Source: a virus
Taxonomy: Duplodnaviria > Caudoviricetes
IMG/VR virus record: IMGVR_UViG_3300017821_000005
Location: 1-45,412 of that record
DNA length: 45,412 bases
Strand: one strand, 5' to 3'
Shown piece after piece: positions 11,056 to 42,370 of the stretch; position 1 is the stretch's first letter, and every line of letters starts with the position of its first letter. The notes beneath the pieces were generated by a model that was not told the DNA's origin, made no database searches, and saw only the letters and a program-made list of their open reading frames with translations. Made by a program: the position numbers and the translations under genes.

Positions 11056-12798
11056 CTAAAGCTTGGCATAACTGCACACCCCAGTAAAAGTCATGTTACT
11101 TCCCGATAACTTGGCCGTGTCTATCAGAGACTGGCCCACCCCAGGCCCGCTCTCCAGAAGCTTTATATTTGGCGCATCAACGTAAGCACTGACCTGAGTG
11201 TAGCCCGCGTCTAGGTTCAATCCTGAGTAAGCCTCAATCGTGCATCCGGCAGCCGCGGTGCTGTTCTGGCGCACCGGAACTCCCCCTATCTGGATTAACC
11301 CCGACTCTCCAGATATCGAGCTTACCTCAAGCTGAAAATAGAGCGTGGTTTGAAAGCCGGTCTCGACGACTTTCCCATACTGGCCGTTTGTTGGATACGT
11401 TGCCGTTCCCGCCACGGTGCTCCCAAGTAATGTCGGAGTCCACGGGGCATACGTGTGGCTGACGATAAGACCCGTATCATCAATGGGTGGAAAATTACCA
11501 TCTCCAACTATAGGATTGTTTATGGTGTTCACCCCGGACGGGTACCCACTTCCATTATCGTATGTTGGCGGGGTGCCCAAATCCGAATAAACCGCGTTGA
11601 CCTCCGAGAAACTATTTCCCCCCGGAAATCCGTGAGAACCGCAGGTGGTGTAGTCCAGGAGGATGCCGTGTTCCGTGTGGTTTCCCAGATCGTGTAATGC
11701 TTTTATAAAGTTCCCGTCGGCAAACCGGACGATGATGCTATACGAGTTGGGAAACATGGCCGTTATATTAGTAATGAGATTCCCGGTTGTGTCCCAGTTA
11801 CAGCCGTTGCTTCCCCCATCCAGTACCATGCAATTGTTGCCCGCAAGGCACACGATGTTATTGTATGAGTTTGACAAACTGTCGACTTCCGGCACAGTGG
11901 GCGGCGTCGTGTCCTGTGTCCAGCTATAAATGCCCACAGAGCAGTTGTCAGTGATGAAATTGCTGACCTTACCAAGCCTGCCACTGCGGATATCCAGCCC
12001 CCAAACGGTGCCGGTCGCATTGGTGCAATCGACCTCTAGGTTGCTTATGCCCCACCCCTCGAGTGGGCCATCTATAAACACCGCGCTTCCCGTGCCACCG
12101 CGGTAATCGATCTTGGGTGCGGTGACGGTGGTGAAATTGTCCCACCCGCCGCCGGTGATCAGCGGATCCCCGTCACCTTTTAGGTAAACTCCTTGTTTCG
12201 TTGATAGTGCTGCTCCGGTGCCGTTACCCACAAACAGCCCAGGACTGCTAATCTTGAATGTTTGATTTGGGAAGAAGATTGTGCCGCCTGTTGCGGGCAG
12301 TGAATTTATCGCGGCCTGGATGGCGGCAGTGGCGTCTGTCGTATCATCTCCCACCGCACCGAACTGCCGAATATCGCGACCGCCCGGTGGGAACTGCCCA
12401 CTCCAATGAGCGCTGTTCGACGAGTTGACGCAAGATGCACCGTCGTCGGTGGCGCAAGCACCGGTACCCGGCGTAAAGAACAGTGGCGGTGCTCCTGCTA
12501 CACCATCGGTAAGCCGAAGTACACCGTTTGGAAACGATGCGGTAGAAGTAGCACGGAGCGATGTCGTATTGACGACGTATGAGGTACTTGGGGACAACCC
12601 GCTCGCGTACGTTGCGATCGCGCTTGGCGTCGTATAGACGGCTGGGTTGGAGCCCTGGAACATAGGTATCAGTTCGGGACCCGTGAGCGCAGTGCCGGGA
12701 GATAGGGTATTTATAGTGCCGTCGGCCCACGCGTGCGGACACCAGGCCATGAAGGATGCGCATAGCAGTCCGCAGATGATGTGGATTATCAGTCTCAT
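11056..12798 (-). CDS. tailspike/depolymerase-like beta-helix protein with signal-peptide-like N-terminus
   Basis: DIRQFGAVGDDTTDATAAIQAAI (pectate_lyase_3-type start); N-terminus MRLIIHIICGLLCASFMAWCPHAWA|D. Confidence 0.8.
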   Translation of the reverse strand: MRLIIHIICGLLCASFMAWCPHAWADGTINTLSPGTALTGPELIPMFQGSNPAVYTTPSAIATYASGLSPSTSYVVNTTSLRATSTASFPNGVLRLTDGVAGAPPLFFTPGTGACATDDGASCVNSSNSAHWSGQFPPGGRDIRQFGAVGDDTTDATAAIQAAINSLPATGGTIFFPNQTFKISSPGLFVGNGTGAALSTKQGVYLKGDGDPLITGGGWDNFTTVTAPKIDYRGGTGSAVFIDGPLEGWGISNLEVDCTNATGTVWGLDIRSGRLGKVSNFITDNCSVGIYSWTQDTTPPTVPEVDSLSNSYNNIVCLAGNNCMVLDGGSNGCNWDTTGNLITNITAMFPNSYSIIVRFADGNFIKALHDLGNHTEHGILLDYTTCGSHGFPGGNSFSEVNAVYSDLGTPPTYDNGSGYPSGVNTINNPIVGDGNFPPIDDTGLIVSHTYAPWTPTLLGSTVAGTATYPTNGQYGKVVETGFQTTLYFQLEVSSISGESGLIQIGGVPVRQNSTAAAGCTIEAYSGLNLDAGYTQVSAYVDAPNIKLLESGPGVGQSLIDTAKLSGSNMTFTGVCSYAKL

Positions 12799-12805
12799 TT
12801 TAGTC

Positions 12806-12967
12806 TCATCTTATTAGAAAACAGCTTCCCGTCTTGATCAGCAGGCATGAGCCCGTCTGGATCAGTAAGTGGTAGCTGGAAGTAGCCGGCCACATTAAGT
12901 AGACGAACGCTGCTGCTGGTGCGCACGTTAGCGCCAGCAGGACCGCGGCTAGCATGAACGTCTTCAT
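12806..12967 (-). CDS. small secreted-type protein (53 aa)
   Basis: ATGA overlap with the upstream stop; [21 protein letters not shown] followed by [16 protein letters not shown]. Confidence 0.65.
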
Positions 12968-41650: not shown

Positions 41651-41871
41651 CAGTACGCCATTTCTCGCCACAGTTTAGCGATTGCGTCTTCAGGCGTAGG
41701 AGCAAAAGCTACCTGGACTCCCGTATTCCATAATATCCAAATTACTGGGCCATCCCCAAGTTCCGGTACTTTAGCACGCCACGCACAGTAGCCATAAACT
41801 CCATTACGCGCAGGGCGCGCGCGGTAGAACCAATCGCCGTCAAAACCGCTGATCGTTTTAACAACTGCCAT
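41650..41871 (-). CDS. hypothetical protein
   Basis: 73-aa ORF tiling the operon. Confidence 0.6.
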   Translation of the reverse strand: MAVVKTISGFDGDWFYRARPARNGVYGYCAWRAKVPELGDGPVIWILWNTGVQVAFAPTPEDAIAKLWREMAY

Positions 41872-41872
41872 A

Positions 41873-42370
41873 TCAGTTAAATCCTATACTACAAGGCAAT
41901 GCCGCCGTAGCCGGCGCTGTTGAACCAGTTGCTGTAGTCGTAGCAGCAACTTGGATTGCGTTGATCATGCCGACACCCTGCCAACCAAGTATTACATTAA
42001 CACCGCCTACAGGGATGGGGATAGCCATTTTAGGCGCTGTGCTGCCTAATGATACAGTAGCTGAAGTATCGAATACCTGCACGTATTCGGTTACGGCATT
42101 AGTGTTGCCACAAGAGATAAAATGCACAACACCGGGGGCGTTATTGCCCGCTGAGCCTTTTACAAACACAACAGTGGCGGTCAGCCCAGAATTAAAGTAG
42201 ACCGCTGCGCCACCATAGGGTTGGGCTGATGCTTTACCATCAAAACCCAATAAACCAACAAAGAGTAATACCAATAATAACCTAATTCCAAATTTAATCA
42301 CTACCCCCCAAAAACAAGCCCATCCAAGAAGTATCGCTATCCATGCAGAAATAAACGTTAGCCTAGACAC
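41873..42370 (-). CDS. membrane-anchored or exported beta-sandwich (decoration-like) protein
   Basis: Long hydrophobic N-terminus ending ...GKASA|Q, followed by a small beta domain with 2 Cys. Confidence 0.6.
   Translation of the reverse strand: MSRLTFISAWIAILLGWACFWGVVIKFGIRLLLVLLFVGLLGFDGKASAQPYGGAAVYFNSGLTATVVFVKGSAGNNAPGVVHFISCGNTNAVTEYVQVFDTSATVSLGSTAPKMAIPIPVGGVNVILGWQGVGMINAIQVAATTTATGSTAPATAALPCSIGFN

Follow-up and report, generated by a model that had tools for sequence, protein, structure and literature searches.

We analysed a 45,412-bp virus record (IMGVR_UViG_3300017821_000005; Duplodnaviria, Caudoviricetes), hereafter the window, in which family searches identify a minus-strand late operon for a contractile tail. 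The operon encodes a DUF4054 adaptor, neck, head-closure and terminator proteins, a DUF3383 sheath, a KPP10-type tube, a tape measure, an E217-type hub, baseplate J, a DUF2612 protein and a tail fibre, and its sheath is 47% identical to its best match among annotated phages. Within the same operon lie eight genes for proteins with signal-like N-termini (Table 1), which an earlier note on this DNA had proposed to be exported and to fold oxidatively. We predict with high confidence that the eight are exported, cleaved and disulfide-bonded, and we favor a destination on the virion for most of them.

Table 1. Predicted exported proteins of the late operon and the signal-less virion genes around them (cysteines of the first eight refer to mature chains)
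Feature	Positions	Strand	Cysteines	Basis or remark
580-aa predicted exported tailspike-like beta-helix	11056..12798	-	10	PF12708 E 1.6e-10; tail fibre/spike/depolymerase PHROGs
53-aa predicted exported peptide, weakest case	12806..12967	-	2	overlaps 1273-aa stop by 4 nt
1273-aa predicted exported fibre, slot after baseplate wedge	12964..16785	-	17 (sole odd count)	
664-aa predicted exported GH141-like beta-helix glycoside hydrolase	32041..34035	-	20	
1309-aa predicted exported mosaic fibre, internal gp10-like module (about 415-522), Pam5-type tip	34002..37931	-	20	
146-aa predicted exported protein, charged (23% K/R/D/E), not fibre-like	37936..38376	-	2	
262-aa predicted exported short fibre, T4-gp10-like module at end	38361..39149	-	2	
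142-aa protein: 26-aa predicted signal and 116-aa jelly-roll domain, decoration- or cement-like	41873..42301	-	2	
Conventional tail fibre, signal-less, 391 aa, phrog_11303	9802..10977	-	2	PHROG, signal rule
Baseplate protein, signal-less, DUF2612, phrog_587, unmatched C-terminal extension, overlaps 1273-aa gene	16773..17798	-		
Contractile tail core, signal-less: baseplate J, wedge, spike, hub, tape measure, tube, sheath, terminator	17795..30090	-		Pfam/PHROG, signal rule
Head-closure-type protein, signal-less, phrog_939 at residues 7-122, then two 85-aa repeats; candidate docking site	39160..40101	-		

Signal-like N-termini were called by a tripartite rule of our own rather than by SignalP or another trained predictor: a basic n-region, an uncharged 10-residue h-region with a mean hydropathy of at least 2, and a small-x-Ala site. 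The pattern is present in all eight proteins, as the earlier note had held. Eight of 63 non-overlapping open reading frames (ORFs) in the window pass, namely seven of these proteins and a lysis-region lipoprotein (lipobox LSG|C); the 53-amino-acid (aa) ORF, which the overlap filter had excluded, passes in a separate test. No core virion protein passes, nor does the 391-aa fibre, and the earlier description of both as lacking signal peptides stands. The background among charged ORFs from viral loci is 7 of 508. Shuffled N-termini pass in 3-17 of 2000 cases for six of the proteins, in 111 of 2000 for the 142-aa protein and in 329 of 2000 for the 53-aa protein, and because their shuffles pass so often, the signals of the last two are weaker on sequence alone. 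The 142-aa protein had been given as 165 aa, a length we revise, as its most likely start is the GTG at 42301, which follows a G-rich ribosome site. Leaders are kept in form among dozens of divergent relatives and end in Ala-x-Ala sites.

A second feature of the set is its cysteine content. With mature chains cut at the cleavage sites of the earlier note, seven of the eight have an even count. An even-cysteine bias has been described as marking exported proteins that form disulfides (PMC2823432). Close pairing of cysteines exceeds that of shuffles in the 1273-aa (p 0.002), 664-aa (p 0.0045) and 1309-aa (p 0.0145) proteins, whereas the 580-aa protein (p 0.68) and the four proteins with two cysteines show no such excess. 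The best 120 of 237 matches to the 1309-aa protein include 119 non-self relatives, of which 60 pass the signal rule. When these relatives are grouped into 73 clusters without the query, the median cysteine number is 10 in the 39 signal-positive clusters, whose counts are mostly even (34/39, p 1e-6), and 2.5 in the 34 signal-negative ones; in signal-positive relatives, close pairs number 343/421 vs 183 in shuffles. Fibre-composition ORFs of viral loci have even counts in 36 of 40 cases with a signal vs 78 of 132 without. The tip domain of the 1309-aa protein has no cysteines in the signal-less tail spike of phage Pam5 and in one further homolog (L041), and two to six in leader-bearing relatives.

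The single-domain family of the 142-aa protein is an internal control for this link, and the cleanest one. Among the best 149 of its 1098 matches, the cysteine pair is present in 77 of 79 signal-positive members vs 27 of 70 signal-negative members; with a looser signal rule the figures are 89 of 95 vs 15 of 54, several of the 15 appearing to be N-terminally truncated. A tree-based test of signal/cysteine co-evolution (phylogenetic independent pairs, 91 columns) returned 5 supported pairs and was not significant; contingency p-values therefore overstate independence, and the pattern may reflect few evolutionary events. Because signals and cysteines co-occur among relatives, we consider it very likely that the eight are exported and fold with disulfides, and this part of the earlier proposal gains support both from the even-cysteine bias and from the co-occurrence within homologous domains.

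The hydrophobic N-termini could instead be uncleaved membrane anchors, mis-called starts or products of chance, with folding in the cytoplasm and air oxidation after lysis, as perhaps in Milano-type virions. Our leader calls come from our own rule and the 53- and 142-aa N-termini often pass after shuffling, but leaders conserved in form among so many divergent relatives, and leader-less versions of the same domains that largely lack cysteine pairs, argue against this explanation. Agrobacterium phage Milano is a myophage with disulfide-rich virion parts, and its virions carry many disulfides for which export is not invoked in the available portion of the article (PMC10811340). Unlike Milano, in which sheath and baseplate are crosslinked, the window has a cysteine-poor core (0-4 cysteines in each protein) and concentrates its cysteines in the leader-bearing accessories. 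We regard this explanation as highly improbable.

The term fibre-like, applied earlier to the whole set, suits the 1309-, 1273-, 580- and 262-aa proteins but not the other four. Relatives that share the cysteine-pair module of the 580-aa protein mostly begin with leaders. The shaft repeats of the 1273-aa protein are common to the 1309-aa protein (E 4e-20), and its tip has no Pfam match, annotated phage records giving only short repeat matches. The tip of the 1309-aa protein matches the annotated tail spike of the cultured phage Pam5, and one of its repeats also occurs in a signal-less fibre-like protein of the cultured phage ppBjS10J-1. A profile (A3) of the 262-aa tip, the internal module of the 1309-aa protein and 20 related stretches matches tailspike 7rfv, which we take to be CBA120 TSP4, at E 0.0016 and T4 gp10 at E 0.033, with unrelated chains starting at E 0.046; by this weak but coherent sequence resemblance, both regions may be akin to branching modules. 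In annotated phage records, the 580-, 262-, 142- and 664-aa proteins have no match. The N-termini of the eight share no common domain by BLAST, and no Pfam S74 match was found in any of them.

The 664-aa protein aligns with the GH141 enzyme BT_1002 (PDB 5mqp; E 2.6e-10, mature-chain residues 92-401) and falls in Atlas beta-helix/GH141 clusters at 0.96-0.98, yet it scores 15 bits against Pfam GH141_M (PF21231), below the 27-bit cut-off, and its single-sequence fold has a predicted local distance difference test score (pLDDT) of 32; its activity is a prediction. It has no recognizable virion anchor, almost nothing preceding the enzyme body. The 146-aa protein matches no Pfam family at cut-off and may be a periplasmic assembly chaperone or helper; small signal-bearing charged genes adjoin signal-bearing fibres in three other loci too (L051, L087 and L101). 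The 53-aa peptide has no relatives in the sequence data compared.

For the 142-aa protein, the structural model (pLDDT 91) is a single jelly roll with its cysteines on strands 31-39 and 109-115, two strands that would lie side by side in such a fold. Its structural matches include XepA (Z 8.6, root-mean-square deviation 3.0, 99 residues aligned), the KHP40 cement protein (Z 7.0, 3.0, 93) and Pam1 (Z 6.5, 3.3, 99), although these Z scores are middling and many unrelated jelly rolls reach those of the cement proteins. The model matches 27 viral models at E<=0.001, many of them uncharacterized phage proteins, and Foldseek on the PDB gave no match at that threshold. The 165-aa form as query found no viral loci. 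All 11 viral matches of a DNA motif encode the 142-aa domain, and the tested neighbors of seven are portal, capsid, neck or tail genes. After 22 of 31 genome matches were dropped for lacking an encoded domain, nine genomic loci were left, of which five are placed within prophage head modules that look alike (PHROGs were used to check one) and two have a phage-like appearance. Two prophage-like regions of soil Alphaproteobacteria (L121:8065-12865 and L132:8066-12064) have four or five consecutive signal-bearing genes between portal and prohead protease. In an uncultured bacterium, a signal-less jelly-roll domain and a gp10-like module stand beside pilus-type genes, with no recognized phage genes (L116:8215-11412).

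The eight genes are tightly embedded in the operon. Eight of the 10 junctions measured with operon neighbors lie within -34 to +10 nucleotides, the others being 72 and 78 nucleotides. Over positions 29000-45412, promoter-like sites number 17 vs 15.7 in shuffles and terminator-like sites 16 vs 15.2. GC content at third codon positions (GC3) is 0.50-0.70 in six of the eight and 0.32-0.44 in core genes; the 262- and 142-aa genes, at 0.43 and 0.38, are core-like.

Leaders also occur on virion-type proteins of other phages. In a myophage (L002), the gene after phrog_6 and phrog_587, baseplate families also present in the window, encodes a leader and, behind it, the N-terminal domain known from the solved virion fibre 8jov (E 7.6e-10). 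A podophage that is 97% complete (G004) has a single match to a head-binding-type domain, directly behind a signal and with a cysteine pair gained, and virion-attachment domains stand behind leaders in the relatives L002, L051 and P0076. An arrangement in which only the fibre has a signal holds for the head-binding domain of G004 but not in G001 or G005. In the Cellulophaga phages phi10:1 (gp091-094) and phi18:3 (gp085-087), seven proteins that GenBank/RefSeq notes list as structural by 'experimental MS/MS proteomics analysis' (MS/MS, tandem mass spectrometry) begin with leaders ending before Gln; their genes are consecutive fibre/lyase genes at the end of the tail module. Among the other MS/MS-annotated proteins of these phages, none of the 13 translated has a leader. 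These phages are sipho- and podoviruses of Bacteroidota, whereas the window is contractile-tailed; by analogy they make export plausible for tailed phages and are not proof for the window phage. The complete podophage G005 has three small signal-bearing genes just downstream of its capsid gene (L136:9561-11435), in addition to a run of six such genes in L060. In the cultured cyanophage Pam5, the 155-aa signal-bearing two-cysteine gene Pam5_19 (L149:4894-5361) directly follows the signal-less tail spike and is a culturable test case.

The earlier note had left open whether the exported proteins go to the virion or to the host surface. The evidence from relatives and gene context leans toward the virion, because these genes are coupled to those of the neck and baseplate, two of the proteins have weakly matched gp10-like modules, relatives join leaders to attachment domains and Cellulophaga proteins carry the MS/MS annotation. 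We therefore consider it probable that most of the set are appendages that mature in the periplasm and dock on the virion at lysis. Late transcription would make the core set and the leader-bearing set alike; the latter would cross the inner membrane by host Sec, lose its leaders, form disulfides and oligomerize in the periplasm. Lysis would then mix the compartments, and the exported parts would bind the cytoplasm-built head, neck and baseplate as a branched set, by way of gp10-like modules and short N-terminal peptides. In a described system, it is through short peptides that secondary receptor-binding proteins attach to branching domains (PMC13352976). The head-closure and DUF2612 proteins both have extensions that are candidate docks. 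The 1273-, 53- and 580-aa proteins would belong to the baseplate, the 262-, 1309- and 664-aa proteins to the neck and the 142-aa jelly roll to the head, with the 146-aa protein as helper; these placements follow solely from gene order, and we hold them with moderate confidence.

Several observations weigh against this route. The phage keeps a signal-less fibre and thus has no need of exported fibres; G001 and G005 likewise retain fibre-like genes without signals. Family and sequence searches recognize no N-terminal virion anchor in any of the eight, the gp10-like matches are weak at the E values given above, and the 664-aa protein is of the whole secreted-enzyme type. A scan of 51 window ORFs revealed no capsid, portal or terminase gene. 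The strict rule passes two of the seven Cellulophaga leaders, the other five having been read by eye; these proteins have 0-3 cysteines and no BLAST match to window proteins, and their virion status comes from GenBank notes rather than peptides. The signal-negative clusters of 1309-aa relatives are themselves even in 23 of 34 cases, and signal-negative relatives have close pairs in 70/149 vs 41+/-6 in shuffles. To these come the non-significant tree test and two of the nine genomic loci of the 142-aa domain (L116 and L118), in which one or two neighbors were tested and no phage gene was among them.

Some of these points would also fit proteins that remain at the surface of the infected or lysogenic cell and act there as adhesins or decoys, in the manner of Bdellovibrio MAT fibres or of moron envelope proteins. 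Lambda lom is such a moron envelope protein within a tail operon. The retained fibre and the two loci without phage genes agree with a cellular role, as does the GC3 of six of the eight, which exceeds that of core genes as in recent imports. Yet the GC3 of the 262- and 142-aa genes is core-like, no lipobox, outer-membrane barrel or anchor family was matched in the eight, and coupling to neck and baseplate genes is tight, with no excess of promoter- or terminator-like sites over shuffles; the leaders of relatives, moreover, directly precede virion-attachment domains. The MAT proteins of Bdellovibrio bacteriovorus show that leader-bearing, phage-type trimeric fibres can fold and work outside the cytoplasm, on the cell surface (PMC10769870). 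They resemble the window proteins in having a signal before mosaic phage-fibre-like proteins with variable tips, and the S74 chaperone (PF13884), which most MATs have, is present in some of the signal-positive relatives of the 1309-aa protein. MATs differ, however, in being chromosomal cell-surface adhesins with a common beta domain of ~130 aa after the signal and S74 in most, whereas the window genes stand in a phage virion operon. On balance, we judge retention on the cell to be improbable.

A second alternative is that the proteins are stockpiled in the periplasm and freed at lysis as soluble factors that degrade or bind glycans, clearing matrix for progeny. The GH141-like and pectate-lyase-like folds suit such a role, as does the near absence of sequence before the enzyme body of the 664-aa protein. 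Free release leaves unexplained the fibre shafts, the gp10-like modules, the jelly roll beside head genes and the fusions of anchor and signal in relatives, and for the set as a whole we consider it still less probable than retention on the cell. For the 664- and 580-aa proteins, and especially for the former, it may nevertheless be right even with docking of the fibres.

Docking at lysis would combine known parts in an apparently undescribed route of biogenesis. Sec export of tailed-phage fibres is not described in the literature searched, which comprised titles and abstract openings, with most subscription papers outside coverage, including the Cellulophaga source paper that possibly bears on novelty; the available portions of a phiCbK paper and of PMC13576161 hold nothing bearing on export. 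Filamentous phage pIII is a Sec-exported, disulfide-bonded virion receptor-binding protein, but Ff assembles at the membrane without lysis and its pIII keeps a membrane anchor, whereas the window belongs to a tailed phage with a cytoplasmic core. Known branched receptor-binding systems are made in the cytoplasm without leaders. Those represented by Klebsiella phage KP32 (PMC13352976), 7rfv and T4 gp10 resemble the window in having several spikes or fibres per phage and, in the 262- and 1309-aa proteins, a weakly matched gp10-like module; they differ in that the putative hubs and branches of the window themselves bear leaders, and the term 'signal peptide' is absent from the available portion of PMC13352976. 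The window contributes a myophage in which leader-bearing sets occur at the neck and also at the baseplate.

In the standard teaching, tailed phages are assembled wholly in the cytoplasm. We lean, if only slightly, toward the broader proposal that many tailed phages build in two compartments, with a cytoplasmic core and with periplasmic branched fibres, spikes, enzymes and head decorations that have their own helper, the two being joined only at lysis; in the window phage, joining would take place at the neck and baseplate, with the head-closure repeats as the dock. If true, a periplasmic branch would give phages disulfide-stabilized fibres and let secreted host enzymes such as GH141 serve as plug-in tips, infectivity would depend on host Sec and Dsb, and lysis would become an assembly step. 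In that case, annotation pipelines may also be losing receptor-binding protein genes that bear signals by discarding them as morons. The cultured Cellulophaga phages make the question testable now.

The candidate docks and the remaining genes of the window deserve brief description. The two head-closure repeats (39160-39696) are 47% identical to each other and have no relatives in a protein search; compared with the 262-aa tip they give pairwise z scores of 4.4 and 2.7, but an hhalign probability of 0.6%. The DUF2612 protein as query found 3 distant viral loci. A terminase family search of five viral records gave no match. Two window proteins are also present on a 103,895-bp contig, and the window therefore probably belongs to a larger genome. 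Two DNA runs yielded only short, scattered pieces of a near-identical phage, and the stretches 31897-31969 and 40193-40223 are matched by other contigs of the same run, possibly as repeated regulatory elements or related phages. A lysis-like cluster at 30573-31807 (minus strand), consisting of the LSG|C lipoprotein and three small membrane proteins, separates the signal genes of the neck region from the tail terminator; nothing in it matched an endolysin family, and only the C-terminus of the tape measure matches an endolysin PHROG. The last genes of the operon, at 6262-9086 (minus strand), encode a 227-aa protein without a match, a glycosyltransferase and a subtilase (PF00082) that has 11 cysteines and no signal; these could have a part in modifying or processing the virion. 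At 19801-21410 (minus strand), the genes for the baseplate spike and wedge are separated by two inserted genes, one phosphatidylserine-decarboxylase-like (PF02666) and one amidinotransferase/ADI-like (phrog_12759), which are possibly a modification pathway.

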